45,695 nt of DNA from a phage (GCA_032325415.1 GCA_032325415.1_4119.2), one strand, 5' to 3'. Shown: positions 2,299 to 20,174, counted from the stretch's first letter. Numbers and translations: made by a program. Notes: generated by a model from the sequence alone, not told the origin.

Positions 2299-2326
2299 TT
2301 GCACCGTACTGATAAAAGCGTATAAT
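2299..2326 (+). promoter_or_regulatory. sigma70-like promoter (cassette type)
   Basis: -35 TTGCAC, 16-bp spacer, -10 TATAAT 2321-2326; followed by GTTTTACATC and hairpin GCGGGA-ACACT-TCCCGC. Confidence 0.65.
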
Positions 2327-2381
2327 GTTTTACATCGAGAGCGGGAACACTTCCCGCTACACATTAAGAGAGATTAAAACG

Positions 2382-2744
2382 ATGGCGACTCAAATCAATA
2401 AAATCATGCTTAACCTGGTAAACTTCCGCGATGAGATGAAAGGTCTTCCGGCTGAAACGGTAAAAATTCACATTGCAGCTTATCGGGAACTTATTGCAAT
2501 GTTGCCGCTTAAGCGTGAACAATACGCCGCTACTTTGATGCTGGATTCAATGATCCATATAATGATCTCAAATGATTTGACGATGGTTTATCAGTATATG
2601 GGCGAAAATTTCGCGGTGTGTAGTAAGCCAGTACCAGGGATGGCAACAACTGAGGAATTGCACGGCTTAAACTTAAAACAAGATGCATGGGATAATATGC
2701 CTCGTTTCCTGGTATGGGCTGACAGTGGCAAAATTTACAAATAA
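2382..2744 (+). CDS. hypothetical protein (120 aa)
   Basis: ATG 2382 after promoter, 5' hairpin and SD; track ORF 2325 start lies inside the -10 element and is rejected. Confidence 0.65.
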   Translation: MATQINKIMLNLVNFRDEMKGLPAETVKIHIAAYRELIAMLPLKREQYAATLMLDSMIHIMISNDLTMVYQYMGENFAVCSKPVPGMATTEELHGLNLKQDAWDNMPRFLVWADSGKIYK

Positions 2745-2758
2745 GTTTAATAAAGTAC

Positions 2759-2786
2759 TTGCAAACTATGTTTAAAAGCGTATAAT
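2759..2786 (+). promoter_or_regulatory. sigma70-like promoter (cassette type)
   Basis: -35 TTGCAA 2759-2764, 16-bp spacer, -10 TATAAT 2781-2786; hairpin GGGGAA-TAG-TTCCCC 2800-2815. Confidence 0.65.
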
Positions 2787-2837
2787 GTTTTACATCAGGT
2801 GGGGAATAGTTCCCCACTATATAAGAGGATTAAAAAA

Positions 2838-3077
2838 ATGGCTAAATCAAAAATGTTCTTAGGTCACAAAAACAAAACTCATTGGAATGTAAGCCTTTGG
2901 ATTAATAACGATGAGGGATTGTATCGGTTGGCCCAGGACTTTATTAACGATAGCACTAATCGCAATGATGCGGCCCGTCATATGATGTTATTTTTAGAAC
3001 AGACTGGACAAGATAAAACACCGGACGGATTCAAATATAGCACTACTGCGATCCGTGCGGCGATGGTTGGAATGTAA
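2838..3077 (+). CDS. hypothetical protein (79 aa), paralog of 4875..5114
   Basis: SD AAGAGGA then ATG 2838; shares GHKNKTHWNVSLW...TPDGFKYSTTAIRAAMVGM with 4875..5114. Confidence 0.7.
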   Translation: MAKSKMFLGHKNKTHWNVSLWINNDEGLYRLAQDFINDSTNRNDAARHMMLFLEQTGQDKTPDGFKYSTTAIRAAMVGM

Positions 3078-3089
3078 TAGAATTTATTT

Positions 3090-3125
3090 AAAGTACTATC
3101 ATTTTTTGCGATAGTACTTTATAAT
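3090..3125 (+). promoter_or_regulatory. inverted repeat AAAGTACTATC-N9-GATAGTACTTT overlapping a -10 TATAAT (operator-type or terminator/promoter)
   Basis: Perfect 11-bp IR 3090-3100 / 3110-3120; TATAAT 3120-3125; -35 degenerate. Confidence 0.45.
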
Positions 3126-3162
3126 AGTGTTTTATTCATACACCAACGATAAGGGCAACAGC

Positions 3163-3429
3163 ATGAATATTAAGTATTTTGCGACGCGTGAACAAGCTCG
3201 GATCGCCGCACGCCAGGACGGGGCAACGTTTAAAGATATGGGAGCGGGATCGGCAAGTGGTGAACGTTGGGCCATTGTAAAGCGTAGTACGGCCAGATCA
3301 TTACAGTACTGGTTAGCGGCCTTAAAAAGTCCCGATAGTGTATCGCGTCGAGTGGTAGAAATAAAGCTCGACCGAAAGGGCAACCGCGTGACCGTGTACC
3401 GTACTAAAAAGATTGCAGTACTTGAATAA
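3163..3429 (+). CDS. hypothetical protein (88 aa), paralog of 15901..16296
   Basis: ATG 3163 downstream of TATAAT; shares KYFATREQARIAARQDGATFKDMG and DRKGNRVTVYRTKK with 15901..16296. Confidence 0.65.
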   Translation: MNIKYFATREQARIAARQDGATFKDMGAGSASGERWAIVKRSTARSLQYWLAALKSPDSVSRRVVEIKLDRKGNRVTVYRTKKIAVLE

Positions 3430-3436
3430 AAAGTAC

Positions 3437-3464
3437 TTGCAAACTATGTTTAAAGGCGTATAAT
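3437..3464 (+). promoter_or_regulatory. sigma70-like promoter (cassette type)
   Basis: -35 TTGCAA, 16-bp spacer, -10 TATAAT 3459-3464; hairpin GCGGGAA-CTC-TTCCCGC. Confidence 0.65.
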
Positions 3465-3516
3465 GTTTTACATCGAGAGCGGGAACTCTTCCCGCCTATA
3501 ACCTGGAGTAATAAAA

Positions 3517-3747
3517 ATGACTAATATGTATATGACTGAAGTTAAAACCGTAAAAGATACTACCACGAATAAAACTACTTACTTACAGCGGATCTGTGGT
3601 GTATGGCAACGTATCAGCAAATCAAAGTACTTTAAATTAACATCATATGCAAATCGTTCGGATTCATTCAGTACTGAAATAAAAGGTAATAAAGTACACC
3701 AATACGGCACTTATTATTATTACAGCCTGGACGCGATTGTAGTATAA
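3517..3747 (+). CDS. hypothetical protein (76 aa)
   Basis: SD GGAGT then ATG 3517; track ORF. Confidence 0.65.
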   Translation: MTNMYMTEVKTVKDTTTNKTTYLQRICGVWQRISKSKYFKLTSYANRSDSFSTEIKGNKVHQYGTYYYYSLDAIVV

Positions 3748-3777
3748 GAAGTTTACAAATCTTTACAATTGCCGGTA

Positions 3778-3806
3778 TTGACTTATTTTGTCAGTACTGG
3801 CATAAT
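3778..3806 (+). promoter_or_regulatory. sigma70-like promoter with no ORF downstream
   Basis: -35 TTGACT 3778-3783, 17-bp spacer, -10 CATAAT 3801-3806. Confidence 0.5.
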
Positions 3807-3960
3807 GTATTCATTGGCAGATAAGCCGTAGCCCATAGGGTGCGGGAGTGTATCTATAGCAAAATTAGTTTAGTATAGTTACAATTGTGCACCCGGTGGG
3901 TTAGCTGTTGTCATGGGGTATATTATGCCAGTACTTGATAATGCTGTCAATACTTTTTTA
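3807..3960 (+). other. candidate structured non-coding transcript carrying GCCCATAGGGTGC and its inverted partner GCACCCGGTGGG
   Basis: No ORF; the two motif copies are about 50 nt apart in opposite orientation and could pair; ends in T-run near 3950. Confidence 0.3.
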
Positions 3961-3989
3961 CTATTCAGTACTGAAAACTATTTTTAAAA

Positions 3990-4172
3990 AGTACTTGCAA
4001 ACTATGTTTAAAGGCGTATAATGTTTTACATCAGGACGGGGAACGAAATAAGTAACTCCCCGTTAAGTAGCCCAGGAGTAAGGCACACGAAAAACTCCCC
4101 TGATAAAATAGTTTGACAAATGTTTTTAAAAGCGTATAATACTTACATCAACTACTGAATGAGGGTTACAAA
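3990..4172 (+). repeat. dual-promoter leader module, copy 1 (near-identical to 14936-15117)
   Basis: Promoter A (-35 TTGCAA 3995-4000, -10 TATAAT 4017-4022), hairpin ACGGGGA...TCCCCGT, conserved AAGTAGCCCAGGAGTAAGGCACACGAAAAACTCCCCTGATAAAATAG, promoter B (-35 TTGACA 4113-4118, -10 TATAAT 4135-4140). Confidence 0.7.
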
Positions 4173-4784
4173 ATGAAAACTATCACTACTACTACTTATG
4201 TTATGGCTTTTTCTGAATTGAACGCAGAACAACAAACGTCAGCTATCGAACTGGTTCGGGAACGTGAAAAAAACTCAAACGACAATTATTTTTCTGAAAG
4301 TGAAATTGAATACTATAAAGAAACAGTACTACCGGAATATGGCATTAATGACGCTGAAATACAATTCAGTGGTTTTTGGTCCCAGGGTGACGGTGCATCA
4401 ATCAGTACTGACAGCGTGGACGCAGTGAAGTTTTTACGCAAGATTAAAGCGTTAACGAAATATCGTTCTATCCGTCACTTGTTGAATGAAGATGATTTGG
4501 CAATGAGTGTAGAACGTTCACACTCTCGCTACGCACACGAAAACACGGTAAGCGGGTACATTGAATCGGCTTACACTGATTTAACCGCAAAACAAGAAAC
4601 GTTAGTTAATGAGCTTGAGGAACTACTCACTGAAACTATTCGTGAATTGTCCCGCAAGTTGTACCGTGATTTAGAGAATGCATATGAGGATCAATTCACT
4701 ACTGAAAACATTACGGCACTGATTGAGGGTAACGAGTATCAATTCAATGTTATTGATGGCGTAGTAGAATCAATCGAATATTAA
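4173..4784 (+). CDS. hypothetical acidic protein (203 aa)
   Basis: SD GAGGG then ATG 4173; track ORF; contains FSGFWSQGDGASI motif; function not recognised with confidence. Confidence 0.7.
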   Translation: MKTITTTTYVMAFSELNAEQQTSAIELVREREKNSNDNYFSESEIEYYKETVLPEYGINDAEIQFSGFWSQGDGASISTDSVDAVKFLRKIKALTKYRSIRHLLNEDDLAMSVERSHSRYAHENTVSGYIESAYTDLTAKQETLVNELEELLTETIRELSRKLYRDLENAYEDQFTTENITALIEGNEYQFNVIDGVVESIEY

Positions 4785-4796
4785 TTTAAAAAGTAC

Positions 4797-4824
4797 TTGC
4801 AAACTAAGTTTAAAAGCGTATAAT
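4797..4824 (+). promoter_or_regulatory. sigma70-like promoter (cassette type)
   Basis: -35 TTGCAA, 16-bp spacer, -10 TATAAT 4819-4824; hairpin GCGGGGA-GTGGT-TCCCCGC. Confidence 0.65.
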
Positions 4825-4874
4825 ACTTTATATCGAGGCGGGGAGTGGTTCCCCGCTCAAACGAGGATTTAAAA

Positions 4875-5114
4875 ATGGCTAGTACTAAAACTTACAACGG
4901 TCACAAAAACAAAACTCATTGGAATGTAAGCCTTTGGGTTAATAACGGTGAGTCATTGTATCGGCTTGCTCAAAGTTGCATCGCACAAAGTAGAACTAAA
5001 GATATTGCTGCGGAATGTATGTACCGCAGATTAAAAGCCAACGGTACTACTACAACGCCGGACGGCTTTAAGTATAGCACTACTGCGATCCGTGCTGCAA
5101 TGGTTGGAATGTAA
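4875..5114 (+). CDS. hypothetical protein (79 aa), paralog of 2838..3077
   Basis: SD ACGAGGA then ATG 4875; paralogy with 2838..3077. Confidence 0.7.
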   Translation: MASTKTYNGHKNKTHWNVSLWVNNGESLYRLAQSCIAQSRTKDIAAECMYRRLKANGTTTTPDGFKYSTTAIRAAMVGM

Positions 5115-5133
5115 TATTCAGTACTGAGATAAT
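5104..5133 (+). promoter_or_regulatory. putative promoter with CAGTACTG in spacer and downstream hairpin
   Basis: -35 TTGGAA 5104-5109, 18-bp spacer, -10 GATAAT 5128-5133; hairpin GGCGGG-N8-CCCGCC 5134-5153. Confidence 0.45.
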
Positions 5134-5171
5134 GGCGGGTAATAGTTCCCGCCTTTACTGAGGGTTATCTA

Positions 5172-5432
5172 ATGAGTAAAGTAATTGCCTATACAGTACT
5201 AAGTAAATCATTATCTATCAGTCATTGCACCGATGGTTATTGGCTATTTGATGAAACGCGTGGCATGAATTTAGCTATGCGTGCAAAAACTGCTGAGGCG
5301 GCGTATATTCAAGCACTGGAATACTACCAGGAACGTTTAAAGGAAGTAGAAGAAGATTATAAAAGCCTCAAAGCGAAAGTAGATCATTTCGTCGGTCAAT
5401 TCATCGAGGAAGACGACGACAAACAATATTGA
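5172..5432 (+). CDS. hypothetical protein (86 aa)
   Basis: SD GAGGG then ATG 5172; track ORF. Confidence 0.65.
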   Translation: MSKVIAYTVLSKSLSISHCTDGYWLFDETRGMNLAMRAKTAEAAYIQALEYYQERLKEVEEDYKSLKAKVDHFVGQFIEEDDDKQY

Positions 5433-5440
5433 AAAAGTAC

Positions 5441-5468
5441 TTGCAATTAGTTTTCAGTACTGTATAAT
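5441..5468 (+). promoter_or_regulatory. sigma70-like promoter
   Basis: -35 TTGCAA 5441-5446, 16-bp spacer containing CAGTACTG, -10 TATAAT 5463-5468. Confidence 0.6.
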
Positions 5469-5506
5469 ACTTTATATCGAGTTAACACTATCCAGGAGCT
5501 TTAATC

Positions 5507-5689
5507 ATGACAACATTATCTGAGGTTATCCGCGAGCAAGCTGCGAAAGCTGGAATGACTGTTATTGATGTAGGGATCGAGGTCGAGATCTCCCCTAACG
5601 AATTGCAAGGCATACCCATGCCTACTAGCTGGGATCGTGCGGGGCGTATGATGCGTGATCACTGGACACTAAGCAATAAAGGCGTATAA
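5507..5689 (+). CDS. hypothetical protein (60 aa)
   Basis: SD CCAGGAG then ATG 5507; stop TAA 5687-5689 lies inside the next -10 hexamer. Confidence 0.6.
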   Translation: MTTLSEVIREQAAKAGMTVIDVGIEVEISPNELQGIPMPTSWDRAGRMMRDHWTLSNKGV

Positions 5690-5690
5690 T
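5663..5690 (+). promoter_or_regulatory. sigma70-like promoter embedded in 3' end of upstream gene
   Basis: -35 TGGACA 5663-5668, 16-bp spacer, -10 TATAAT 5685-5690; leader is a duplicate of the 5469-5506 leader. Confidence 0.55.
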
Positions 5691-5728
5691 ACTTTATATC
5701 GAGTTAACACTATCCAGGAGTAACGGCA

Positions 5729-5917
5729 ATGTTTAATATTTTAATCGTTAATGAACAAGGTAACGAGATTGAAACAATTCAATCCCCAATTAATCCGATT
5801 GGTGCTCATAGTCTGGTAACAGAAAAAGCGGTTTATGATTGTATAGAGTTTTCTGCGTCCTTTAAAAATAATCAGATTGTTGTGCACGTTGAAAATGATT
5901 TTATGGAATTTAATTAA
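5729..5917 (+). CDS. hypothetical protein (62 aa)
   Basis: SD CCAGGAGT then ATG 5729; track ORF. Confidence 0.6.
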   Translation: MFNILIVNEQGNEIETIQSPINPIGAHSLVTEKAVYDCIEFSASFKNNQIVVHVENDFMEFN

Positions 5918-5923
5918 AAGTAC

Positions 5924-5951
5924 TTGCAATTAGTTTTCAGTACTGTATAAT
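5924..5951 (+). promoter_or_regulatory. sigma70-like promoter (cassette type)
   Basis: -35 TTGCAA 5924-5929, 16-bp spacer, -10 TATAAT 5946-5951; hairpin AGGGAGAA-ATGG-TTCTCCCT. Confidence 0.65.
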
Positions 5952-6001
5952 GGTTTACATCAAAGGGAGAAATGGTTCTCCCTGGTAATGAGGAAAATAC
6001 A

Positions 6002-6223
6002 ATGGCTAATATCACTACTCTTTCCCAACTGGAAGCACTGGTTAAATCTATGCGGGAACATGCTGACAAAATCGGCGTACAAGATCCAGCCGTTTGCTTC
6101 TGCGACGAATTGAATGATGATACCCTGGTAATAGCAGAAGTCCAGGACGTTTCTAACTATTCCTCGCGTTACACTGGCGGCGTAGCAAATAAAGGCGACT
6201 TCTGTTTATACCTTACAAAATAA
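6002..6223 (+). CDS. hypothetical protein (73 aa)
   Basis: SD GAGGAAA then ATG 6002, in frame with track ORF 5972 whose start lies in the leader hairpin. Confidence 0.65.
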   Translation: MANITTLSQLEALVKSMREHADKIGVQDPAVCFCDELNDDTLVIAEVQDVSNYSSRYTGGVANKGDFCLYLTK

Positions 6224-6228
6224 CAACG

Positions 6229-6258
6229 CGGGGAGATAATAACTCCCCGTTACTTTTT
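6229..6258 (+). terminator. rho-independent terminator
   Basis: CGGGGAG-ATAATAA-CTCCCCG followed by TTACTTTTT. Confidence 0.7.
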
Positions 6259-6391
6259 CAGTACTGAATCATTTAATAGACGGATCTCGGCACCCGGTGG
6301 GTTAGTGACTGTTTCGTCTTGATGTAGTAATTATGCCAGTACTGGATGCACTTGTCAACAATTATTTTTCAAATACTTTTTATTAAAATAC

Positions 6392-6419
6392 TTGCAATTA
6401 GTTTTTAAACGCGTATAAT
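6392..6419 (+). promoter_or_regulatory. sigma70-like promoter (cassette type)
   Basis: -35 TTGCAA 6392-6397, 16-bp spacer, -10 TATAAT 6414-6419; hairpin GGGGA-GCGGT-TCCCC. Confidence 0.65.
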
Positions 6420-6466
6420 GTTTTGCATAGGGGGAGCGGTTCCCCTGGTAACTAAGGAATAAGAAA

Positions 6467-6703
6467 ATGGTCGAACAAATCAAATCAACGTCTGCGAATG
6501 TAACGGGAACGGTATCCCACTTTACTAGTGATGAATCGCGTGGTGTTCCTTATTGTGCTGTACATGTAAACACTGATGGCAACTACTGGTTTACGGTTTA
6601 CGGATCATATTCATTTGGTCGGCCAGGACATCAAAAAATCCTGGATAAAGTACAACCAACGGGTAAAAATATCACTGCCGAAATGTTTTATAAAAAATCA
6701 TAA
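6467..6703 (+). CDS. hypothetical protein (78 aa)
   Basis: SD TAAGGAAT then ATG 6467; track ORF. Confidence 0.65.
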   Translation: MVEQIKSTSANVTGTVSHFTSDESRGVPYCAVHVNTDGNYWFTVYGSYSFGRPGHQKILDKVQPTGKNITAEMFYKKS

Positions 6704-6708
6704 AGTAC

Positions 6709-6736
6709 TTGATAATAGTTTTTAGTACTGTATAAT
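6709..6736 (+). promoter_or_regulatory. sigma70-like promoter (cassette type)
   Basis: -35 TTGATA 6709-6714, 16-bp spacer, -10 TATAAT 6731-6736; hairpin GGGGGAGCGGTTCCCCC. Confidence 0.6.
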
Positions 6737-6787
6737 ATTTTACATCGCAAGGGGGAGCGGTTCCCCCTGGTAACTAAGGATAATCAA

Positions 6788-7087
6788 ATGAAAATTGCAA
6801 TCATCGCCCTGGCTTTATCTGTTTCCTCTTTCGCTGTTAATGCGTCGTTAGATGTAAGTAGTGAAAAATTCATTCAGTGCACTGTTGCAATGACCGATGA
6901 AAGTACTGGCGAGATTGTATTAAAGGATTTAGAGATCCAGCCGGAAGCATTTAAAAACGGCCCGTTCCATGAAGAAGACGAAAAAGGTAGCACGACAATT
7001 TATTACGATGCAAGTACTAAACGCGGTTCGGTCACTGTAATGGATACGGAGAAAGTAACTCATACTGGCGTTATTAATTGCCGTTGA
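6788..7087 (+). CDS. predicted secreted/periplasmic protein (99 aa) with N-terminal signal peptide
   Basis: N-terminus MKIAIIALALSVSSFAVNA has a basic residue, hydrophobic core and AxA-like cleavage context; SD TAAGGAT. Confidence 0.65.
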   Translation: MKIAIIALALSVSSFAVNASLDVSSEKFIQCTVAMTDESTGEIVLKDLEIQPEAFKNGPFHEEDEKGSTTIYYDASTKRGSVTVMDTEKVTHTGVINCR

Positions 7088-7108
7088 TAGATACTACGGG
7101 GTAACATC

Positions 7109-7339
7109 ATGACTAAGCGAATTGTTTTACTTAACGAAAGCAGTACTACACAACTACTTAACGCCGTACATTATGATATTGAAACGAGTGTTAATCTTAT
7201 CAGTACTGTAGTACTATTGGACACTGGAAAGGTCGCCAATGAAAAAGCTATTGCAGGTGTACTAACTGATCTTGAGCCTGGTAGCAGTACACCCATAACG
7301 TTAAATGATAAAGTGTTTAATGTTTTAATTACTGAATAA
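7109..7339 (+). CDS. hypothetical protein (76 aa)
   Basis: Track ORF 22 nt after previous stop; likely co-transcribed; followed by terminator. Confidence 0.55.
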   Translation: MTKRIVLLNESSTTQLLNAVHYDIETSVNLISTVVLLDTGKVANEKAIAGVLTDLEPGSSTPITLNDKVFNVLITE

Positions 7340-7345
7340 GTACAT

Positions 7346-7368
7346 AGCCCACCTGGTGGGCTTTTTTG
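7346..7368 (+). terminator. rho-independent terminator
   Basis: AGCCCACC-TGGT-GGGCT hairpin followed by TTTTTTGTTTTTG. Confidence 0.75.
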
Positions 7369-7421
7369 TTTTTGTAGTATCGTAGTACTGAGATACTTTG
7401 AAAATAGTTTTAAGAAAGTAG

Positions 7422-7449
7422 TTGACATTACCGCAGAAAAGCGTAGAAT
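7422..7449 (+). promoter_or_regulatory. sigma70-like promoter; leader is a diverged variant of the dual-promoter module
   Basis: -35 TTGACA 7422-7427, 16-bp spacer, -10 TAGAAT 7444-7449; hairpin ACGGGGAG...; second putative promoter TTGATA 7523-7528 / TAAACT. Confidence 0.55.
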
Positions 7450-7572
7450 GTATTACATCAAGACGGGGAGCACTAAGTAGACCGCCAGTAAGTCGAACGA
7501 AAAACTGGACACGTCGAGAAAACTTTGATACACTAATAAACGTAAACTAAACTTTAATTGAGGATTTATAAA

Positions 7573-8055
7573 ATGGCTAATGTAAAATCATTCATCAAAG
7601 CACTGGTAGCAAATGAAACTAACGTCGCGGCTGAGATCCTGGCTGAACTGGATAACGATACCATGAAAGCGGTACGCAATAATTTTAACATCGCTTACAG
7701 TACTGCGAAAGAACTACAAGCAAATAAAGCGGCAGAAATTGAAGCGGCAAAGGCGGCCCGTGAAGCAGAACTACAAGCAACAATCGAAAGTATTCAGGCG
7801 GCAGTAGTTGGATTGGATCTGGAAGTAGTTACAGAGATGGCACAAAAAGCCCTGGCGGTTAAGTATGGGGAAGACAAGCCAGAAGTAAAAGCCAAAAAAT
7901 GGATTCAGGAACGCGTAGCGGTAGTACTGGACAACGGGGAAGAATATCTGATTCCGGTGCGTGGTAACTGCATTGCGGTAGTACTGGACGCGATTAACGC
8001 CAGCGGTATGACTCGCGAGGAATGGATCGAATCTCATCGCAAAGTTGAAGCATAA
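7573..8055 (+). CDS. hypothetical Ala/Glu-rich protein (160 aa)
   Basis: SD TGAGGAT then ATG 7573, in frame with track ORF 7558. Confidence 0.65.
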   Translation: MANVKSFIKALVANETNVAAEILAELDNDTMKAVRNNFNIAYSTAKELQANKAAEIEAAKAAREAELQATIESIQAAVVGLDLEVVTEMAQKALAVKYGEDKPEVKAKKWIQERVAVVLDNGEEYLIPVRGNCIAVVLDAINASGMTREEWIESHRKVEA

Positions 8056-8076
8056 CAATTAAAGTACTGAATCACT

Positions 8077-14378: not shown

Positions 14379-14395
14379 TATAAGGAGTACAGCTT

Positions 14396-14658: not shown

Positions 14659-14804
14659 AAGAATTCTTATTCGAAGTAGTGTTTCAAGGTGTCGGTAGTA
14701 ACCAACTGATTCGCTCAAGTGGTTATAATGTTAACCAGGCATGGAATAACATTAAACAAATGTACCCGAACGCTATCACCTATCGCAACCCGAAAGAAGT
14801 TTAA
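14655..14804 (+). CDS. small protein (49 aa)
   Basis: ATG 14655 overlaps upstream stop (ATGA); SD GAGGTG; not in track. Confidence 0.45.
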   Translation: MKEFLFEVVFQGVGSNQLIRSSGYNVNQAWNNIKQMYPNAITYRNPKEV

Positions 14805-14812
14805 AAATATTT

Positions 14813-14900
14813 GAAAAAGGGATTGACTCCGGTCAGTCCCTTTGCTATTATATACGCATAGAAACAAATCAGCCCACAGGGTGCATAAATGTATCTATTG
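14813..14900 (+). repeat. R module copy 2 (terminator-like hairpin, embedded promoter, conserved core)
   Basis: AAAAAGGGATTGACTCCGGTCAGTCCCTTT hairpin; -35 TTGACT 14823-14828, -10 TATTAT 14846-14851; core AGCCCACAGGGTGCATAAATGTATCT. Confidence 0.65.
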
Positions 14901-14935
14901 TTTGCTGGTGGCTAGTACTGAAAACTATTTTTAAA

Positions 14936-15117
14936 AAGTACTTGCATTGTACTTAGAATCAAGTATAATGTTTTACATCAGGACGGGGAACGAAACAAGT
15001 AACCCCGTTAAGTAGTCCAGGAGTAAGACATAAGAAAACCTCCCCTGATAAAATAGTTTGACAATAGAAAGTAAAAGAGTATAATACTTACATCAACCAC
15101 TGATAAGGAAACATAAA
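14936..15117 (+). repeat. dual-promoter leader module, copy 2 (near-identical to 3990-4172)
   Basis: Promoter A (-35 TTGCAT 14942-14947, -10 TATAAT 14964-14969), hairpin ACGGGGAA...CCCCGT, conserved AAGTAGTCCAGGAGTAAGACATAAGAAAACCTCCCCTGATAAAATAG, promoter B (-35 TTGACA 15058-15063, -10 TATAAT 15080-15085). Confidence 0.7.
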
Positions 15118-15393
15118 ATGCGGATTCTACTGACAGCTAACGAAATCGAACAAGTACTGACTACTAACCTGGAAGACTGGAAACGTGAAGCAGATATCCA
15201 GGCGGTTCAACGGCTTAACGATGAGTTAACGCCGGATGACTTAAGCAAGATTGTAGATCCTCAATTCTACGAAGATATCCACGACACCGCGTTAAGCGTC
15301 GAGGATGTACTAGATAAGCACTACATTGATATTGATTTGCAGGTTTACGGTCGTAAAAACTTTATCACTATTCACGACATTTACAATAATTAA
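15118..15393 (+). CDS. hypothetical acidic protein (91 aa)
   Basis: SD TAAGGAAA then ATG 15118; track ORF. Confidence 0.65.
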   Translation: MRILLTANEIEQVLTTNLEDWKREADIQAVQRLNDELTPDDLSKIVDPQFYEDIHDTALSVEDVLDKHYIDIDLQVYGRKNFITIHDIYNN

Positions 15394-15396
15394 GTA

Positions 15397-15424
15397 TTGA
15401 CAAAGTATCTTAGTACTGTATAAT
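15397..15424 (+). promoter_or_regulatory. sigma70-like promoter (cassette type)
   Basis: -35 TTGACA 15397-15402, 16-bp spacer with AGTACTG, -10 TATAAT 15419-15424; hairpin GAGGGGAA-ACGG-TTCCCCTC. Confidence 0.65.
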
Positions 15425-15481
15425 AGTTTACATCAAGTGAGGGGAAACGGTTCCCCTCCTAACAAAGAGAGAGAAATAAAA

Positions 15482-15805
15482 ATGGCTATGATCCTTACCC
15501 AGAAAGTGGAACTGAAAATTGTAACCTCCTTTGACATTAACGTTAATCGGTGGACTGATTCACACGGCAATACTTACCACTCTTGCTACGTGTCTGCTTT
15601 AATTGGCGACCGCTGGGAAGACCTGGGACACGAAACCTTTACATACGGTTACGGTACACAAGGCGAATACACGGGCTTGGAGATCATTAAAGAAACCGTT
15701 ATAGGTTTCAACCCGAAAGAAAAAGTTATTCACCGCATCGAGGAAGAGATCAACAAAGAAATAACAGTTCGCTACCACGATGTAAAACGTAAGAAAGACA
15801 TGTAA
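15482..15805 (+). CDS. hypothetical protein (107 aa), distant paralog of 8879..9223
   Basis: ATG 15482 in frame with track ORF 15437 whose start is in the leader hairpin. Confidence 0.65.
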   Translation: MAMILTQKVELKIVTSFDINVNRWTDSHGNTYHSCYVSALIGDRWEDLGHETFTYGYGTQGEYTGLEIIKETVIGFNPKEKVIHRIEEEINKEITVRYHDVKRKKDM

Positions 15806-15819
15806 TAGAATCCATTTAA

Positions 15820-15856
15820 AGTACTATTTGACATTGCCCAGATAGTACTTTATAAT
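15820..15856 (+). promoter_or_regulatory. promoter with operator-like inverted repeat AGTACTAT-N14-ATAGTACT
   Basis: AGTACTAT 15820-15827, -35 TTGACA 15828-15833, ATAGTACT 15842-15849, -10 TATAAT 15851-15856. Confidence 0.6.
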
Positions 15857-15900
15857 AGACTCTAACTTGTAGTACTAACTCAACTAATAGGATGTATACC

Positions 15901-16296
15901 ATGATTACTAAATTCTACGCTACCCGTGAAGCTGCCCGTATTGTTGCACGCGAGGAAGGAGCAGCATTTAAAGACATGGGCAAAGATGCACCGAAAGGCC
16001 AACGCTGGGCCGTACAGTTCAAAGAGATCTCTGATATTGTGAATTCACCTGAGCCAGTACTAACAGCAGCAGAACTAAAACGAGCGGATTTACTGGCGTC
16101 AATACTTGATGCACAAGATGAGTTTATCGCTGATTCTGATATCAAAGTACAGACAAACCATACCGCTTGGACTCACGCGGATCACCTGGCAAACCTGAAG
16201 CGTCCAAGTGAACTGGTACGCAACCAGAAAGAGATCCGACACGACCGTAAGGGTAATCGTGTAACAGTATACAGTAAACGCCGCCAGGTTATCTAA
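15901..16296 (+). CDS. hypothetical protein (131 aa), paralog of 3163..3429
   Basis: ATG 15901 chosen by paralog alignment and SD AGGAT spacing; track start 15892 is an alternative. Confidence 0.6.
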   Translation: MITKFYATREAARIVAREEGAAFKDMGKDAPKGQRWAVQFKEISDIVNSPEPVLTAAELKRADLLASILDAQDEFIADSDIKVQTNHTAWTHADHLANLKRPSELVRNQKEIRHDRKGNRVTVYSKRRQVI

Positions 16297-16318
16297 TAAC
16301 TTGCAGTACTAACAACAC

Positions 16319-16344
16319 GGCGGGATCAGTTCCCGCCTTTTTTA
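16319..16344 (+). terminator. rho-independent terminator
   Basis: GGCGGGA-TCAG-TTCCCGCC followed by TTTTTTAT. Confidence 0.8.
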
Positions 16345-16357
16345 TAGGACAAACAAA

Positions 16358-16612
16358 ATGATTAAGGTTCAACTATATAAAGATAATATCTTGCGGGTAC
16401 ACTATAAAGCCCCTCAGAGAATCATCACAAAGGCCGTACAGCTTGCTAATGAGTTTATTAATGGTAACCTATTACCTAGGAAGTTAAGCAACGGGAAACT
16501 GCGTGTAATCGACGTGGACACTAACAACAGGATAGTAATCGAGAACACAGGAAAGATAAACCTTTATGAGCATCAACAATACAATAAGAAAATAAAACTA
16601 ATATCACGTTGA
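16358..16612 (+). CDS. hypothetical protein (84 aa)
   Basis: Track ORF downstream of terminator; weak SD. Confidence 0.5.
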   Translation: MIKVQLYKDNILRVHYKAPQRIITKAVQLANEFINGNLLPRKLSNGKLRVIDVDTNNRIVIENTGKINLYEHQQYNKKIKLISR

Positions 16613-16637
16613 CAGTACTCAAATGTTTTAGTACTAT
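16609..16637 (+). promoter_or_regulatory. putative sigma70-like promoter
   Basis: -35 TTGACA 16609-16614, 17-bp spacer, -10 TACTAT 16632-16637. Confidence 0.45.
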
Positions 16638-16666
16638 ATGTACATACCAACACGGGGAGAAACAAA

Positions 16667-16909
16667 ATGATTACTTTAGAAAAACGTATCAAAGAAACTA
16701 CATCGCTGGTGGAACTGTTAACAGTACTCAAATGTAAAACTACTCGGTTTAGTACACCGGACTTTATTAATATGGTTGATGTTAATGGTCGCTATCGTAT
16801 CACGGTCGAACAAGGAGCGGCGAAAGTATTCAGTACTAAAAACACTAAGGAAGTGATTCACGCTGTAAGTGTTAAAAAAGTAGTTGCCATTGATAGTAAA
16901 GTACTGTAA
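16667..16909 (+). CDS. hypothetical protein (80 aa)
   Basis: SD GGGGAGA then ATG 16667; track ORF. Confidence 0.55.
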   Translation: MITLEKRIKETTSLVELLTVLKCKTTRFSTPDFINMVDVNGRYRITVEQGAAKVFSTKNTKEVIHAVSVKKVVAIDSKVL

Positions 16910-16940
16910 GATAGTTTCATTAACTCAAGGAGAACATGCA

Positions 16941-17525
16941 ATGCGTAATTATACTAAATTCATCCGTACCCTGTCAGAAATGGAAACCAACAAAGAGATC
17001 CTTTCAGCTTGTCGGTTAGCTGGTCTGGAGATCATCGGTGCGGGTTCTTCCCGTATTGTATTCGCTTTAAATGATCGGTTAGTGATTAAGGTCGCGAATT
17101 GTGATGCGGGTGTAGAACAAAATGAAACTGAATGTAAGGTATGGAATTTTTTAGATTATGACCGCCCTCAATTGAAACAGTACTTTGCAAAGGTGCATAT
17201 GCATTTATGCGATCCTGATAATATGTTTATCGTTATGGATCGGTTGAGTACTGCAAGTAAAGGCAGTGTAAAGCACGTAAACGCGTGCAATGAATTAAAG
17301 TACAATATTAAACGTAATGCCATTGAACGCCAGCACCGCTTTGCTGATGCACTACAACACGTTGATGATACATTATCAACACTAACGATAAGAGATATCA
17401 GAAAACAGAATATCGGCCAGGATCGTAATGGCCTTATTAAAGTACTTGATTACGGTTTAACCCGCAATATCTGGAATCAGTACTATAAAAAGCGTGATGT
17501 AGAAGCAAGTAAGGTAACACGATAA
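16941..17525 (+). CDS. putative small protein-kinase-like protein (194 aa)
   Basis: SD AAGGAG then ATG 16941; motifs IGAGSSRIVF (Gly-rich loop), LVIKVA (VAIK-like Lys), IRDIRKQNIG (HRD-x-K-x-x-N-like catalytic loop), KVLDYGL (DFG-like). Confidence 0.55.
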   Translation: MRNYTKFIRTLSEMETNKEILSACRLAGLEIIGAGSSRIVFALNDRLVIKVANCDAGVEQNETECKVWNFLDYDRPQLKQYFAKVHMHLCDPDNMFIVMDRLSTASKGSVKHVNACNELKYNIKRNAIERQHRFADALQHVDDTLSTLTIRDIRKQNIGQDRNGLIKVLDYGLTRNIWNQYYKKRDVEASKVTR

Positions 17526-17526
17526 A

Positions 17527-17612
17527 AAAAGATTAAAAAAGGGATTGACTCCGGTCAGTCCCTTTGCTATTATATATTCATTGAGAGATAACTCACTGAC
17601 CCATAGGGTGCG
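17527..17612 (+). repeat. R module copy 3 (terminator-like hairpin, embedded promoter, conserved core)
   Basis: AAAAAAGGGATTGACTCCGGTCAGTCCCTTT; -35 TTGACT 17545-17550, -10 TATTAT 17568-17573; core GACCCATAGGGTGCGGAAGTGTATCT. Confidence 0.65.
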
Positions 17613-17666
17613 GAAGTGTATCTATTATATAAGTATTCAGTACTGAAAACTATTTTTAAAAAGTAC

Positions 17667-17694
17667 TTGCATTGTACTTAGAATCAAGTATAAT
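17667..17694 (+). promoter_or_regulatory. sigma70-like promoter (cassette type)
   Basis: -35 TTGCAT 17667-17672, 16-bp spacer, -10 TATAAT 17689-17694; hairpin GAGAGGGGAA-ATGG-TTCTCCCTC. Confidence 0.65.
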
Positions 17695-17747
17695 GTTTTA
17701 TATCGAGAGGGGAAATGGTTCTCCCTCAAAGAACAAGGAATAAAATC

Positions 17748-17969
17748 ATGACTACAATGACTTGCATTCACGCTTCAAACCTGCTTAATGATGCGGCCTT
17801 TAATGTTGAAACAGAATATCAATGTTATCGGGATGAAAATAAAAAAGTTTTTGTAGTTGATAATAATGGTTTCCATATTGAATTGCAATCCGGCTTCACT
17901 GGCGTTGATGGTAAATCAGTATGGGGAGTACAGGATGATAAAGGCACATATCATTTTAAACGTAATTAA
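17748..17969 (+). CDS. hypothetical protein (73 aa)
   Basis: SD AAGGAAT then ATG 17748, in frame with track ORF 17715. Confidence 0.65.
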   Translation: MTTMTCIHASNLLNDAAFNVETEYQCYRDENKKVFVVDNNGFHIELQSGFTGVDGKSVWGVQDDKGTYHFKRN

Positions 17970-17972
17970 GTA

Positions 17973-18000
17973 TTGACAAAGTATATCAGTACTGTATAAT
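17973..18000 (+). promoter_or_regulatory. sigma70-like promoter (cassette type)
   Basis: -35 TTGACA 17973-17978, 16-bp spacer with CAGTACTG, -10 TATAAT 17995-18000; hairpin GGGGAGAA-TAG-TTCTCCCC. Confidence 0.65.
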
Positions 18001-18053
18001 AGTTTACATCAAGGGGAGAATAGTTCTCCCCACCAATAAAAGGAAACAAAATT

Positions 18054-18326
18054 ATGTCCAGCTACTCCGCTACTATGATTATTAAAGATATGAACGGTAA
18101 TCCTACTTCTGCTGGTGGATCATTTGGTAACATTAACTTAGATGGGCGGTTATCAATTGAATCAGCCATCAATGCCGCGAAAGAAGTTTTTAAGAATGAA
18201 TGTACTGTAAGCAAGCTGGATTATATGGGCTTCGCTATCGAGAAAACTAATCGTTTTGTGGACTACAAAAAACCACTGATGATCGATACTAACCTGAAAG
18301 CTAACGAAGTGGAATACTTATTATGA
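18054..18326 (+). CDS. hypothetical protein (90 aa)
   Basis: SD AAAGGAAA then ATG 18054; track ORF. Confidence 0.65.
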   Translation: MSSYSATMIIKDMNGNPTSAGGSFGNINLDGRLSIESAINAAKEVFKNECTVSKLDYMGFAIEKTNRFVDYKKPLMIDTNLKANEVEYLL

Positions 18327-18514
18327 CAGTAGAAGAAGTTAAAAAAGTACTGGCAGTACTACGCTATCATAATCATTGCAAGGTGAAGAATGATCCTGAT
18401 TATGTTGATTCATCCCTGGAGGAAGACACATTAAACGCAATAAGCCATATGCAAAAAATGCTTAAGCGTATGACCGAAAAGAACAGGCCAGACTATATCG
18501 GAAATAAAATTTAA
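18323..18514 (+). CDS. hypothetical protein (63 aa)
   Basis: ATG overlaps upstream stop (ATGA), translational coupling; track ORF. Confidence 0.55.
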   Translation: MTVEEVKKVLAVLRYHNHCKVKNDPDYVDSSLEEDTLNAISHMQKMLKRMTEKNRPDYIGNKI

Positions 18515-18521
18515 AAAGTAC

Positions 18522-18549
18522 TTGCATTGTAGTTAGATTAACGTATAAT
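18522..18549 (+). promoter_or_regulatory. sigma70-like promoter (cassette type)
   Basis: -35 TTGCAT 18522-18527, 16-bp spacer, -10 TATAAT 18544-18549; hairpin GCGGGGGAA-TAG-TTCTCCCGC. Confidence 0.65.
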
Positions 18550-18600
18550 GTTTTACATAGAGCGGGGGAATAGTTCTCCCGCCAGTCCAGGAGATACACC

Positions 18601-18864
18601 ATGAACACTATCGAAATCACTATCAATGCACACGTATACGACAACGTAGTACTGCAAACTACTATGACCGCCAATGATACCAGTACTTTGCGGAATGCCG
18701 TTGTAAGTGCTGTATGTGCTGCAATCGGTGATGTAGCCCTGGAAAATGCAGAACACATCAACAACGGTTTCACTATGTGCAAACGTGATAACGCAAAACA
18801 TATCATCGTAGAAGGTTACGGCGGTGTAGAATTTAATGTTTATATGAAAAAAGTACTTGCATAA
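18601..18864 (+). CDS. hypothetical protein (87 aa)
   Basis: SD CCAGGAGA then ATG 18601; last codons overlap the next -35. Confidence 0.65.
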   Translation: MNTIEITINAHVYDNVVLQTTMTANDTSTLRNAVVSAVCAAIGDVALENAEHINNGFTMCKRDNAKHIIVEGYGGVEFNVYMKKVLA

Positions 18865-18884
18865 TAACTAAAACAAAGTATAAT
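18857..18884 (+). promoter_or_regulatory. sigma70-like promoter (cassette type)
   Basis: -35 TTGCAT 18857-18862, 16-bp spacer, -10 TATAAT 18879-18884; hairpin GGGGGAG-ATAT-CCTCCCCC. Confidence 0.65.
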
Positions 18885-18931
18885 GTTTTGCATAGGGGGA
18901 GATATCCTCCCCCACTAAAAGGAGTAATAAA

Positions 18932-19156
18932 ATGGCTAACTTTGATGAACTGATGCGGGAAGTAGCTAACCTGGCAGAAGAGAAGAAATCATTCGATTCT
19001 ATCTATAACACCGCTCACCGTGATTCAGTACTGGCATGTACTCAGGATCAAAAAGATGAACTAATCGCCACCTATCATGAAGCATGGAAGTACTACCGAC
19101 AATGGGAGAAAGAAGAAAGTGAGTCTACCATTGACGGCCTCAATAATCTAATCTAA
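18932..19156 (+). CDS. hypothetical acidic protein (74 aa)
   Basis: SD AAAGGAGT then ATG 18932; track ORF. Confidence 0.65.
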   Translation: MANFDELMREVANLAEEKKSFDSIYNTAHRDSVLACTQDQKDELIATYHEAWKYYRQWEKEESESTIDGLNNLI

Positions 19157-19168
19157 AAGTTTTATTTC

Positions 19169-19205
19169 AGTACTATTGACATAGCTTGATAGTACTGATG
19201 TAATA
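19169..19205 (+). promoter_or_regulatory. promoter with operator-like inverted repeat AGTACTAT-N12-ATAGTACT
   Basis: AGTACTAT 19169-19176, -35 TTGACA 19176-19181, ATAGTACT 19189-19196, -10-like TGTAAT about 19199-19204. Confidence 0.55.
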
Positions 19206-19232
19206 ACTTTACTAACTACAAGGGGAAACATA

Positions 19233-19490
19233 ATGGAACAGTTCACACAATATCGGGTAAATCCTCAAGCTATGGCCTACGTAGAAGACCATAAAACATT
19301 ACCAGTACTGCAACCAGTTAAAGGCCATATCTATCGTGCTATGTCGTGGAGTACGGCCCAGGATGGCTATAAAACCGTAGCCGTTGGTATGTATTGCGGG
19401 AATGGTGAATGGTTTGATCCAAATAATCCGGTAGCCATTGACAGTACTGAAAAAATGAAATGGGCCGACTACATCGAAGATATTTCATAA
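19233..19490 (+). CDS. hypothetical protein (85 aa)
   Basis: SD AAGGGGA then ATG 19233; track ORF. Confidence 0.6.
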   Translation: MEQFTQYRVNPQAMAYVEDHKTLPVLQPVKGHIYRAMSWSTAQDGYKTVAVGMYCGNGEWFDPNNPVAIDSTEKMKWADYIEDIS

Positions 19491-19496
19491 AAAGAA

Positions 19497-19585
19497 TAAA
19501 AAAGGGATTGACTCCGGTCAGTCCCTTTGCTATTATATACGCATAGACAAAAACTAGCCCACAGGGTGCATAGGTGTATCTAAAA
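19497..19585 (+). repeat. R module copy 4 (terminator-like hairpin, embedded promoter, conserved core)
   Basis: AAAAAAGGGATTGACTCCGGTCAGTCCCTTT; -35 TTGACT 19508-19513, -10 TATTAT 19531-19536; core AGCCCACAGGGTGCATAGGTGTATCT. Confidence 0.65.
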
Positions 19586-19670
19586 TATATAGTTAATAAC
19601 GGTGAGTAACTATCTGCTGGTGGATGTACTGCCAGTACTCAAGGGAACTAAAACTATTAATAAAAAAGTA

Positions 19671-19699
19671 TTGACAAAGTATATCAGTACTGCGATAAT
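19671..19699 (+). promoter_or_regulatory. sigma70-like promoter
   Basis: -35 TTGACA 19671-19676, 17-bp spacer with CAGTACTG, -10 GATAAT 19694-19699. Confidence 0.55.
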
Positions 19700-19752
19700 G
19701 TATCTCGTAGGGCGGCAATGGTGCGACGGCCCACAAAGTTAGGAGATTCAAA

Positions 19753-20085
19753 ATGAGTACTTCAATCGCTATCGTTAAAGCTTTCATCCGTACCAATGTT
19801 TCATCTGTATTCATCGACGGACTGGATCGTGAAGTAGAATACTCAATCATTATCGCACAGACTGCAAACGGTGCTCGGTATATCCTCAATGATAGTGAAG
19901 CAAATCACTACTACTTCACTAAAGCTACTGGCTTTAAACGCATCGATGCCGATGTAGTATACGCTAAGATGAATAAGCTGGTAGACAAGATTAACGCTAA
20001 AGGCACTATTGATTTACAGTACTGGACCGAAACCGATCCAGAATATGGATCTCACCGCTACCTGAATCCAGGTATCAAAATGTAA
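19753..20085 (+). CDS. hypothetical protein (110 aa)
   Basis: SD TAGGAG then ATG 19753; track ORF; overlapping minus-strand ORF 19593..19889 rejected. Confidence 0.65.
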   Translation: MSTSIAIVKAFIRTNVSSVFIDGLDREVEYSIIIAQTANGARYILNDSEANHYYFTKATGFKRIDADVVYAKMNKLVDKINAKGTIDLQYWTETDPEYGSHRYLNPGIKM

Positions 20086-20092
20086 AAAGTAC

Positions 20093-20120
20093 TTGCATAG
20101 TACTTAGATTCATGTATAAT
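20093..20120 (+). promoter_or_regulatory. sigma70-like promoter (cassette type)
   Basis: -35 TTGCAT 20093-20098, 16-bp spacer, -10 TATAAT 20115-20120; hairpin GAGGGGGAA-ATGG-TTCTCCCTC. Confidence 0.65.
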
Positions 20121-20174
20121 GTTTTACATAGAGAGGGGGAAATGGTTCTCCCTCCTAAATTAAGGAGTTTTATC

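Follow-up and report, generated by a model that had tools for sequence, protein, structure and literature searches.

The window analysed here, a stretch of phage DNA of 45,695 nucleotides (GCA_032325415.1_4119.2), carries between positions 2299 and 20177 a series of closely similar units of ~100 bp, each made up of an A-rich upstream tract, a sigma-70-type promoter, a leader and a Shine-Dalgarno (SD) sequence, and in many of them the leader holds a short hairpin whose two arms change together. Comparison with related genomes indicates that these cassettes are whole repeated modules, confined to the equivalent of the phage terminal repeat and positioned at junctions where genes have been gained, lost or swapped, a context that an earlier sequence-only reading of the same DNA had missed. 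On balance it appears probable, though far from certain, that they act as portable immediate-early cassettes, being a shuffling module at the DNA level while at the RNA level the leader hairpin would stabilise or insulate the mRNA.

Cassette number and anatomy

The interval 2299-20177 was scanned for TTGNNN, a spacer of 16-17 bp, TA[TGC]A[AG]T and 5-7 nt ending in [CT]AT, and a hairpin was sought in the next 45 nt. A short G-rich leader hairpin was found in 21 cassettes, all on the + strand, to which three cassettes with long leaders (3995, 7422 and 14942) are added, while about 18 + strand promoters of the same stretch have no hairpin. The sequence-only reading had counted about 30 hairpin cassettes; cassettes do occur where it placed them, but the number comes to 21-24 of roughly 40 near-consensus promoters. 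Promoters consist of TTGCAA, TTGCAT or TTGACA, 16-17 bp and TATAAT, with an AT-rich tract (AAAAAGTAC) upstream, and their activity is predicted from sequence; the near-consensus motifs described before were borne out by the pattern scan and by a repeat finder, which independently returned a 50-nt promoter family in 20 copies as well as several families with 10 copies each, whose 84-98 nt extend from the promoter through the hairpin to the SD.

The transcription start is predicted, not mapped, and was taken as the A of a conserved CAT, 8 nt past the usual TATAAT hexamer. Part of the initial transcribed sequence described earlier as conserved (GTTTTAC) is probably the discriminator upstream of the predicted start. 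Counted from this start, leaders are 40-50 nt long and 1-9 nucleotides (median 5, mostly 4-7) are unpaired before the stem, and the hairpin, always 8-16 bp downstream of the -10 and within the predicted transcript, ends 17-23 nt before the start codon. The contiguous stem of the 21 hairpins has 5-9 bp and the loop 3-5 nt, in the form GGGGAGAA-nnn-TTCTCCCC or variants of it, and the 5' arms, at about +5 to +14, are almost purely purine and contain GGAG or GGGGA. All four stems quoted in the sequence-only reading exist, although the one given as AGGGGAAAC/GTTTCCCCT is really AGGGGAAA-cgg-TTTCCCCT. Hairpins of at least 7 bp with a purine-only 5' arm number 15, all in cassette leaders, compared with 0.07 expected in random 21-kb sequence of the same first-order (nearest-neighbour) composition, and chance is therefore excluded.

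Every minimum-free-energy structure from RNAfold includes the hairpin (mean leader free energy, dG, -13.6 kcal/mol), with SD and AUG predicted to be mostly unpaired. Sequestration of the SD by the pyrimidine arm was rejected, since in the minimum-free-energy folds the hairpin is closed and the SD open. Loops of the ATGG or ATGA type place an ATG at 5972, 8625, 10381, 14137, 17715 and 20142; four of these six share the frame of the downstream gene, whose product they would extend by MVLP... or MILP..., and the other two begin short open reading frames (ORFs) of 10 and 14 codons that end at or just past the real start codon. An upstream ORF starting in the loop is probably incidental, given the mixed frames and an ATG that lies 2 nt from a stem-buried SD-like sequence.

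Covariation of the stems and the strand that folds

The stems differ between copies and yet stay complementary, as had been claimed. Within the window the arms of one cassette form 7.86 consecutive pairs, against 5.50 for arms of different cassettes, a level that none of 10,000 arm permutations reached, and 17 distinct stems are present. To the window were added six relatives (G17, Ecwhy_1, SP27, SHEFM2K, CMSTMSU and Salmonella phage SD-2_S15), and these seven genomes gave 51 distinct arm pairs, 50 of which were used in counting. In a MAFFT alignment of the leaders, stems with a loop of 3 nt did not line up with those whose loop has 4 nt; the arms were extracted anchored on the loop and joined by a dummy AAAA loop. 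Paired cells amounted to 87.6% compared with 79.7% after shuffling, both sides had changed at eight of nine pairs, and the covariation score was 0.375 versus 0.219, with none of 500 shuffles reaching the observed value; every measure drops when the 3' partner is slid by 1-3 columns. The inner three pairs are partly forced by the hairpin finder, whereas the outer pairs are not, and it is the outer pairs that give the strongest signal, one position being occupied by AU in 13 cases, GC in 13, GU in 6, CG in 3 and UG in 2. The two A-U pairs at the loop are nearly invariant (18-20 of 21), loop sequence and length (3-5 nt) both vary, and orthologous positions often hold different, still fully paired stems.

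Wobbles at internal positions comprise 31 G·T and 4 A·C (binomial p = 3e-6, for copies that are related and not independent), while equal numbers are expected under strand-symmetric mutation. With a 5' arm that is nearly all purine and a 3' arm that is nearly all pyrimidine, a fold of the + strand can accommodate G·T but not A·C, and a fold of the - strand A·C but not G·T. Moreover, in 99 window-versus-ortholog comparisons the stems diverge by 3.0%, the loops by 7.0% and the spacer plus SD by 5.8% (stems versus loops p = 9e-4); CMSTMSU (L005), an unverified record with apparent single-base indels, was left out of this comparison and retained in the hairpin set and in the counted arm pairs. The wobble asymmetry, the mirrored changes, the variable loop length and the low stem divergence together indicate selection for pairing in the transcribed strand, RNA being the simplest candidate. 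The sequence-only reading had likewise proposed selection for the structure, and covariation, stem divergence and wobble asymmetry agree with it; none of the three functions it offered (stabilisation of the mRNA 5' end, a processing or recognition site, an effect on promoter escape) was confirmed.

Promoter escape is easier where the initial transcribed sequence is rich in purines, as in T5 N25, and the 5' arms here are almost purely purine, GGAG or GGGGA included, which would suit a constraint on the start of the transcript, with the pyrimidine arm masking the SD-like GGGGAG from ribosomes. This explanation is quite improbable, because promoters that share the -35 and -10 but have no hairpin do not begin with a purine-rich stretch, and because arms containing C or T are compensated (GCGGG/CCCGC, GGTGGGG/CCCCACT), so that it is the pairing and not the purine content that is preserved.

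Cassettes in the terminal repeat and at recombination junctions

Sequence matches identify the window as the early region of a jumbo coliphage of the genus Asteriusvirus (PBECO4/121Q-type), with a genome of ~350 kb and Escherichia coli as host. The top megablast matches to 2299-12000 among GenBank phages are Asteriusvirus genomes of 350-385 kb (Ecwhy_1, WPEC5, SP27, phAPEC6, G17 and others), with 94-98% identity but a coverage of only 60-72%, split into several pieces, and the region is thus mosaic among close relatives. The direct terminal repeat of fEgEco12 measures 20,993 bp and is experimentally supported (PMC13070987). Positions 1-3200 of fEgEco12 align to 660-3835 of the window and 20000-22326 to 20013-22340, which puts the interval 2299-20177 wholly inside the terminal-repeat equivalent (about 660-21,006). 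Nearly all genes of the cassette region are annotated as "hypothetical" in the relatives.

When collinear blocks between the window and the six relatives were delimited by BLAST, their ends recurred at cassettes. Promoter cassettes cover 24% of the region and contain 20 of 35 breakpoint clusters (p = 3e-5), and hairpin cassettes cover 14% and contain 14 of the 35 (p = 1e-4), with several further clusters exactly at cassette edges; both statistics pool six related genomes, so that events are shared. Overlapping alignments at 15380-15488, 16585-16670 and 17968-18066 set one cassette in the window against two in relatives, where the two near-identical copies flank an extra small gene; the first of these is doubled in five of the six relatives and the third in three. 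This single-versus-double pattern is, on such comparison, the signature of deletion or insertion via recombination between flanking repeats. The gene at 13108-13464, ahead of the breakpoint at 13482, is missing from two relatives; it is annotated as an acetyltransferase in relatives and has promoters at both sides.

Replacement is also visible at the level of single cassettes. At the equivalent of 8258, phage G17 is identical from -35 to -10 and then has a different, hairpin-less leader and an extra gene, while its ortholog of the window gene is driven by another promoter without hairpin. The hairpin at 10103 is a chimera in the window, its 5' arm being like the 2299/3437 type and its 3' arm like the 2759 type, with imperfect pairing. 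In relatives the equivalent position has GGGGAGAA-atga-TTCTCCCC; the gene that follows is the same and the flanks match closely, which makes this a patch replacement of the hairpin.

Since the cassettes are demonstrably recombination junctions, and an inverted repeat just past the start sits at a classic operator position, the element might act in DNA, as a cruciform, as a recombination site or as the operator of a dimeric repressor over +5 to +25, the RNA fold being incidental. This was rejected as very improbable: half-sites change in a mirrored fashion, their spacing varies from 3 to 5 nt, and a duplex palindrome prefers neither G·T nor A·C, which does not fit the 31 to 4 asymmetry.

Possible roles of the hairpin

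The reading that we favour joins two levels. At the DNA level, as the comparison of genomes shows, near-identical cassettes are substrates for homologous recombination and short-patch conversion, which has also been proposed for PeSLs, the mobile promoter units of T4-type phages discussed below, and single small genes can thereby be inserted, deleted or re-promoted, each bringing its own expression signals. At the RNA level, the hairpin would give a compact, nuclease-resistant and context-independent mRNA. In the transcript from its own promoter it would lie near the 5' end; in read-through transcripts it would be intergenic, where it could block 3' exonucleases, possibly after processing, and prevent upstream sequence from pairing with the ribosome-binding site. 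Few terminators lie between genes, and many transcripts are thus expected to cross several cassettes.

Several observations weigh against this combined reading. RppH and RNase E need at least 2 unpaired 5' nucleotides and prefer at least 3 (PMC8833179), and RNase E easily scans past an orthogonal stem-loop (PMC9943677); the predicted 5' tail, with its median of 5 nt, is long enough for both enzymes, and with RNase E stepping over stem-loops, classic 5'-end protection is doubtful. The hairpin is also dispensable, given about 18 promoters of the same family without it and orthologous genes that carry either kind. The near-invariant A-U pairs at the loop are unexplained by stability alone, and the shared events in the breakpoint statistic count on the same side. 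Finally, both arms can move together in exchange among roughly 20 paralogous copies, which inflates covariation counts; part of the count may therefore reflect whole-hairpin transfer and not independent compensatory mutation, although the persistence of ~50 distinct, almost always complementary stems would still require selection on pairing.

Such transfer raises the question of a functionless relic, for example of a terminator, spread with the promoter module and homogenised by gene conversion. Whole-hairpin replacement between orthologous positions and the dispensability of the hairpin would agree with it. Nevertheless, a relic is left with hardly any probability by the number of different stems, almost every one of them fully paired (17 in the window, 50 in the seven genomes taken together), by the lower divergence of stems than of loops and spacers, and by the retention of the design in a genus at only about 29% average nucleotide identity (ANI).

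It has also been considered that the hairpins are transcription attenuators or insulators, the role first suggested for the stem-loops of PeSLs, that damp read-through from upstream, leaving each gene to be set by its own promoter. The stem-loop of the RB49/phi1 PeSL, when placed between a promoter and lacZ, cut expression about as much as rrnB T1 (PMC2839356), the stems described here share its G-run/C-run character, and most upstream genes end with no terminator ahead of the next promoter. In addition, similar hairpins without promoters at 5139-5158 and 16319-16337 carry T-runs, and the one at 16319 scores as a terminator. On the other hand, no T-tract occurs within 8 nt past the stem in any of the 21 leader hairpins, and the terminator scan, which flags canonical hairpin-plus-T terminators at 6228, 7346, 8077 and 16319, flags none of the 21, so that a reading of the leader hairpins as terminators was rejected; they also all lie downstream of their own predicted start, whose transcripts would terminate too, and the phage has canonical terminators where they are needed. 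Attenuation is hence unlikely, while retaining some chance of being right. The two promoter-less elements are GGCGGG...CCCGCC hairpins between genes, about 12-20 nt before the next SD, and 16319-16337 has a T6 run and a terminator score on both strands, which suggests that leader hairpins and terminators are related.

A further possibility is that the hairpin is a recognition or processing tag for a phage early-to-middle factor, an endoribonuclease or a host RNA-binding protein, uniting the genes in one regulon. Its stereotyped GGGAA...TTCCC core and nearly invariant A-U pairs closing the loop (18-20 of 21) would suit a tag, as would the restriction of the motif to the terminal-repeat gene set and its conservation across jumbo-phage genera. 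We give it a slim chance, since the loop varies in sequence and length (3-5 nt), the stem varies with compensation, a third or more of the promoters do without the hairpin, and no candidate binding protein was identified. A specific form of this idea, to which a similarly small probability attaches, is that the hairpin is a portable post-transcriptional address label, carried along by each shuffled gene, of the terminal-repeat immediate-early regulon in Rak2-like jumbo phages, and that a phage or host factor reads it at the conserved GGGAA/UUCCC top of the stem. If so, the factor might spare early mRNAs during destruction of host mRNA, or might switch them off together at the early-to-middle transition.

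Distribution beyond this phage and significance

With cassette 10921 as query, 783 places were found in 63 phage records. Asteriusvirus genomes have 11-32 places each, about double where the terminal repeat is written at both ends, and weaker matches occur in other Rak2-like jumbo phages (fENko-Kae01, PHA46, SE_PL, EJP2, K64-1, CBB and Hallingskeid) as well as in ~145-kb phi92/rV5-like phages. Klebsiella phage fENko-Kae01 has about 29% ANI to fEgEco12 (PMC13070987), and its annotated terminal repeat holds 25 such promoters, 8 of them with a leader hairpin of the GGGGGAA-acatc-TTCCCCC type under the criteria applied here. Justusliebigvirus VEcB (phi92-like) has a single cassette with the stem GCGGGAA/TTCCCGC, unlike the stem of the window at 2759, in front of a homologous gene, and its gene product begins with MAKSKM, as does that of the window gene at 2838. 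Among IMG/VR contigs, just four had the exact pattern of -10, initial transcribed sequence and GGGGA; three of these are ~350 kb long and the fourth is 109 kb. The literature on Asteriusvirus, Rak2-like phages, CBB, phAPEC6, fEgEco12 and fENko-Kae01 gave no start-site maps or description of the cassettes; the papers on the last four phages report at most generic RpoD-like promoters and do not mention hairpins.

The idea of mobile regulatory cassettes is thereby extended from T4-type to Rak2-like jumbo phages, and it gives the mosaicism of genes in the terminal repeat a concrete mechanism, that region being a likely site of candidate genes for immediate-early takeover and anti-defence. In this regard, the cassettes are a cheap annotation key for such genes in dozens of genomes of 350 kb, in which about 80% of the proteins lack annotation. 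They may also be natural compact, insulated expression units that synthetic biology could borrow, and the covarying hairpin is an RNA element that, given its predicted geometry, fits textbook 5'-end protection poorly.

Feature coordinates and other sequence features

Table 1. Promoter cassettes and related features of the window. Starts are predicted; hairpins are given as 5' arm-loop-3' arm.
Feature	Position	Strand	Promoter	Start	Hairpin or leader	ATG	Remarks
Equivalent of ~21-kb Asteriusvirus direct terminal repeat	660..21006	none					From fEgEco12 alignments; holds every cassette
Cassette	2299..2384	+	-35 TTGCAC, 16 bp, TATAAT	2334	2340-2358 AGCGGGAA-cac-TTCCCGCT	2382	
Cassette	2759..2840	+	TTGCAA/TATAAT	2794	2798-2818 GGTGGGGAA-tag-TTCCCCACT	2838	
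Cassette	3437..3519	+		3472	3479-3495 GCGGGAA-ctc-TTCCCGC	3517	
Long variant	3995..4175	+	Promoter, then second hairpin-less promoter TTGACA at 4113		~75-nt closed two-hairpin leader 4030-4105	4173	
Cassette	4797..4877	+		4832	4837-4857 GGCGGGGAG-tgg-TTCCCCGCT	4875	Synteny breakpoint 4853-4862
Hairpin-less promoter, same family	5441..5509	+			Leader ATCGAGTTAACACTATCCAGGAG		Partial duplicate 5663-5731
Cassette	5924..6004	+		5959	5964-5983 AGGGAGAA-atgg-TTCTCCCT	6002	Breakpoint cluster 5907-5917
Cassette	6392..6469	+		6427	6428-6447 TAGGGGGA-gcgg-TTCCCCTG	6467	
Cassette	6709..6790	+		6744	6750-6768 AGGGGGAG-cgg-TTCCCCCT	6788	Orthologs: GGGGAAA/TTTCCCC
Long-leader variant	7422..7575	+	TTGACA/TAGAAT		~115-nt leader		No significant predicted structure (z +0.3)
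Cassette	8258..8343	+		8293	8298-8319 GAGGGGGAA-acgg-TTCTCCTTC, two G·T pairs	8341	Breakpoints 8298 and 8328 flank hairpin
Cassette	8577..8656	+		8612	8617-8636 GGGGAGAA-atgg-TTCTCCCC	8654	
Cassette, degenerate chimeric hairpin	10103..10185	+			GAGCGGGAA-tag-TTCCCCCCT; 5 contiguous pairs only, 10147-10159	10183	
Cassette	10333..10413	+		10368	10373-10392 GGGGAGAA-atga-TTCTCCCC	10411	Breakpoint 10323
Cassette	10921..11002	+		10956	10962-10980 AGGGGAAA-cgg-TTTCCCCT	11000	
Cassette	11356..11439	+	TTGACA/TATAAT	11391	11396-11414 GGGGAGAA-tag-TTCTCCCC	11437	
Cassette	13468..13545	+	TTGCAT, 17 bp, TATAGT	13503	13507-13525 AGGGGAA-acatc-TTCCCCT	13543	Breakpoint 13482
Cassette	14089..14168	+		14124	14129-14148 GGGGAGAA-atga-TTCTCCCC	14166	Breakpoint 14080
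Second cassette type, classic PeSL layout	14814..14897	+	TTGACT-17-TATTAT		Stem-loop AAAGGGATTGAC-tccg-GTCAGTCCCTTT over -35		
Long variant, second copy	14942..15120	+	Promoter, then second promoter at 15058		~75-nt structured leader 14977-15050	15118	dG -19.1, z -3.0
Cassette	15397..15484	+		15432	15439-15458 GAGGGGAA-acgg-TTCCCCTC	15482	
Cassette	17667..17750	+		17702	17709-17724 GGGGAA-atgg-TTCTCC, extendable via bulge	17748	
Cassette	17973..18056	+		18008	18013-18031 GGGGAGAA-tag-TTCTCCCC	18054	
Cassette	18522..18603	+		18557	18562-18582 GCGGGGGAA-tag-TTCTCCCGC	18601	One ortholog: GAGGGGGAA/TTTCCCCTC
Cassette	18857..18934	+		18892	18895-18913 GGGGGAG-atatc-CTCCCCC	18932	
Last cassette	20093..20177	+		20128	20133-20154 GAGGGGGAA-atgg-TTCTCCCTC	20175	

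The leader at 3995 folds with a dG of -22.2 and a z of -3.5, and a copy of this unit that is 87% identical lies at 15003-15103 (repeat family D16). In the pair 3995-4112 and 14942-15057, AUCAGG...CCUGAU encloses two hairpins and the structure runs straight into the hairpin-less promoter; it may be a small structured RNA or a leader. No match to Rfam 15 at the gathering score was obtained in the window, and a transfer RNA scan of it returned nothing.

Genes with a named function in relatives are few in the terminal repeat. Besides the acetyltransferase gene described above, they include 12787-13044, a DksA-like or C4 zinc-finger protein by the relatives' annotation, and 16884-17525, which may correspond to a fENko-Kae01 gene annotated as a putative protein kinase. 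Gene organisation shifts sharply at the boundary of the terminal repeat, and 21104-28185 holds more than 30 tandem ORFs of 65-90 aa, mostly overlapping through ATGA-type stop/start overlaps and without promoter cassettes, which belong to one PHROG family (4148) in the annotation of a relative. Towards the other side, ~400 nt inside the match to the physical left genome end of fEgEco12 (window 660), a consensus-like promoter (TTGACT-16-TATAAT, 1025-1100) precedes a different, AT-richer 10-bp hairpin with no obvious ORF, and this hairpin is identical in the five relatives where it was found. Dense short direct repeats (GGATGGCTAGACG / GGACGGCTAAACG) with spacings of 8-40 nt occupy 1380-1560, near the genome-end equivalent, and may be a packaging or replication site.

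The window has 201 copies of the palindrome AGTACT, where 12.8 are expected (none of 100 shuffles reached this number); they are densest in 1-20900 and also lie in 26048-28713 and 36415-45308, with no site listed in 20876-26047 or 28714-36414. The palindrome adjoins the -35 (AGTACTTGCAA), occupies many promoter spacers (CAGTACTGTATAAT) and is frequent in coding sequence too, and it may be a protein-binding or DNA-modification motif. On the minus strand, TTGACA-17-CATAAT promoters with an upstream TG at 3922-3950 and 6330-6358 point into a repeated motif containing GCACCCGGTGGG, with associated sites at 1726-1779, 1942-1995 and 6281-6334; within 3778-3950 the minus-strand promoter converges on a + strand promoter ~100 nt away, an arrangement that would give complementary transcripts.

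Comparison with known systems

The 5' untranslated region of ompA and the leader of phage T7 gene 10 are 5'-terminal stabilising stem-loops. The cassette leaders resemble them in having a GC-rich hairpin near the mRNA 5' end followed by an unstructured ribosome-binding site, whereas protection of that kind needs fewer than about 2-3 unpaired nucleotides (PMC8833179) and the predicted tails here are mostly 4-7 nt long. With intrinsic terminators they share a short GC-rich stem-loop, and similar hairpins with T-runs are predicted terminators at 6228 and 16319, but the 21 leader hairpins have no T/U tract and are located downstream of their own promoters. The pre-early genes of phage T5 lie in a long direct terminal repeat and combine very strong host-type promoters with small takeover genes. 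The strong host-type promoters and small genes in the terminal repeat of the present phage recall this array; T5 is not known to have a stereotyped covarying leader hairpin or cassette-mediated shuffling.

The closest parallel is provided by the PeSLs, described in the T4-type phages RB49/phi1, PST/T4 and nt-1/KVP40 (Arbiol et al. 2010, PMC2839356; Comeau et al. 2014, PMC4122927) as intergenic units of ~100 bp in which an AT-rich tract and a sigma-70 promoter are combined with an SD and a stem-loop of the G-run/C-run type. They form clusters in stretches of ORFans and mark the junctions of indels, and modular shuffling and mini-circle excision have been proposed for them (PMC2839356; PMC4122927). 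Out of seven PeSL features listed, five are found here, judged from the DNA alone: a near-consensus sigma-70 promoter with an AT-rich upstream tract; a G-run/loop/C-run stem-loop in a repeated unit; a 3' edge formed by the SD and start codon of the gene that follows; clustering in plastic regions of small genes without known function; and indels or replacements between relatives that are bounded by cassettes, the pattern of two flanking copies versus a single one being seen in both systems. The two systems part over where the stem-loop lies and whether it reads as a terminator. That of a PeSL is found ahead of the promoter, inside it or overlapping it, or at most shortly before the start, and is taken to be a terminator; every leader hairpin here lies beyond both the -10 and the predicted start, and none has a T-tract. 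The array also has a different host, a Rak2-like jumbo phage in which the array fills the direct terminal repeat.

The window also has a second cassette type in which the stem (GGGATTGAC...GTCAGTCCC) lies over the -35, the classic PeSL placement. Further copies of this 14814-type element are found at about 10791-10880, 17536-17619 and 19499-19582, with variants at 3762-3860 and at 12462-12545 (family D13). The element is terminator-like and promoter-like at once, four copies being picked up by the terminator scan, and the G17 annotation lists it as terminators. Its 12-bp stem-loop is followed by a conserved stretch of ~45 nt with GCCCAyAGGGTGCr and no ORF, which may be a small RNA, its predicted folds being unremarkable (z about -1).

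In conclusion, the comparative evidence indicates that the cassettes behave like PeSLs, and what is new is a leader-hairpin variant in a jumbo phage, a tidier version of the mobile cassette in which promoter, structured leader and ribosome-binding site would move as one unit of ~100 bp.

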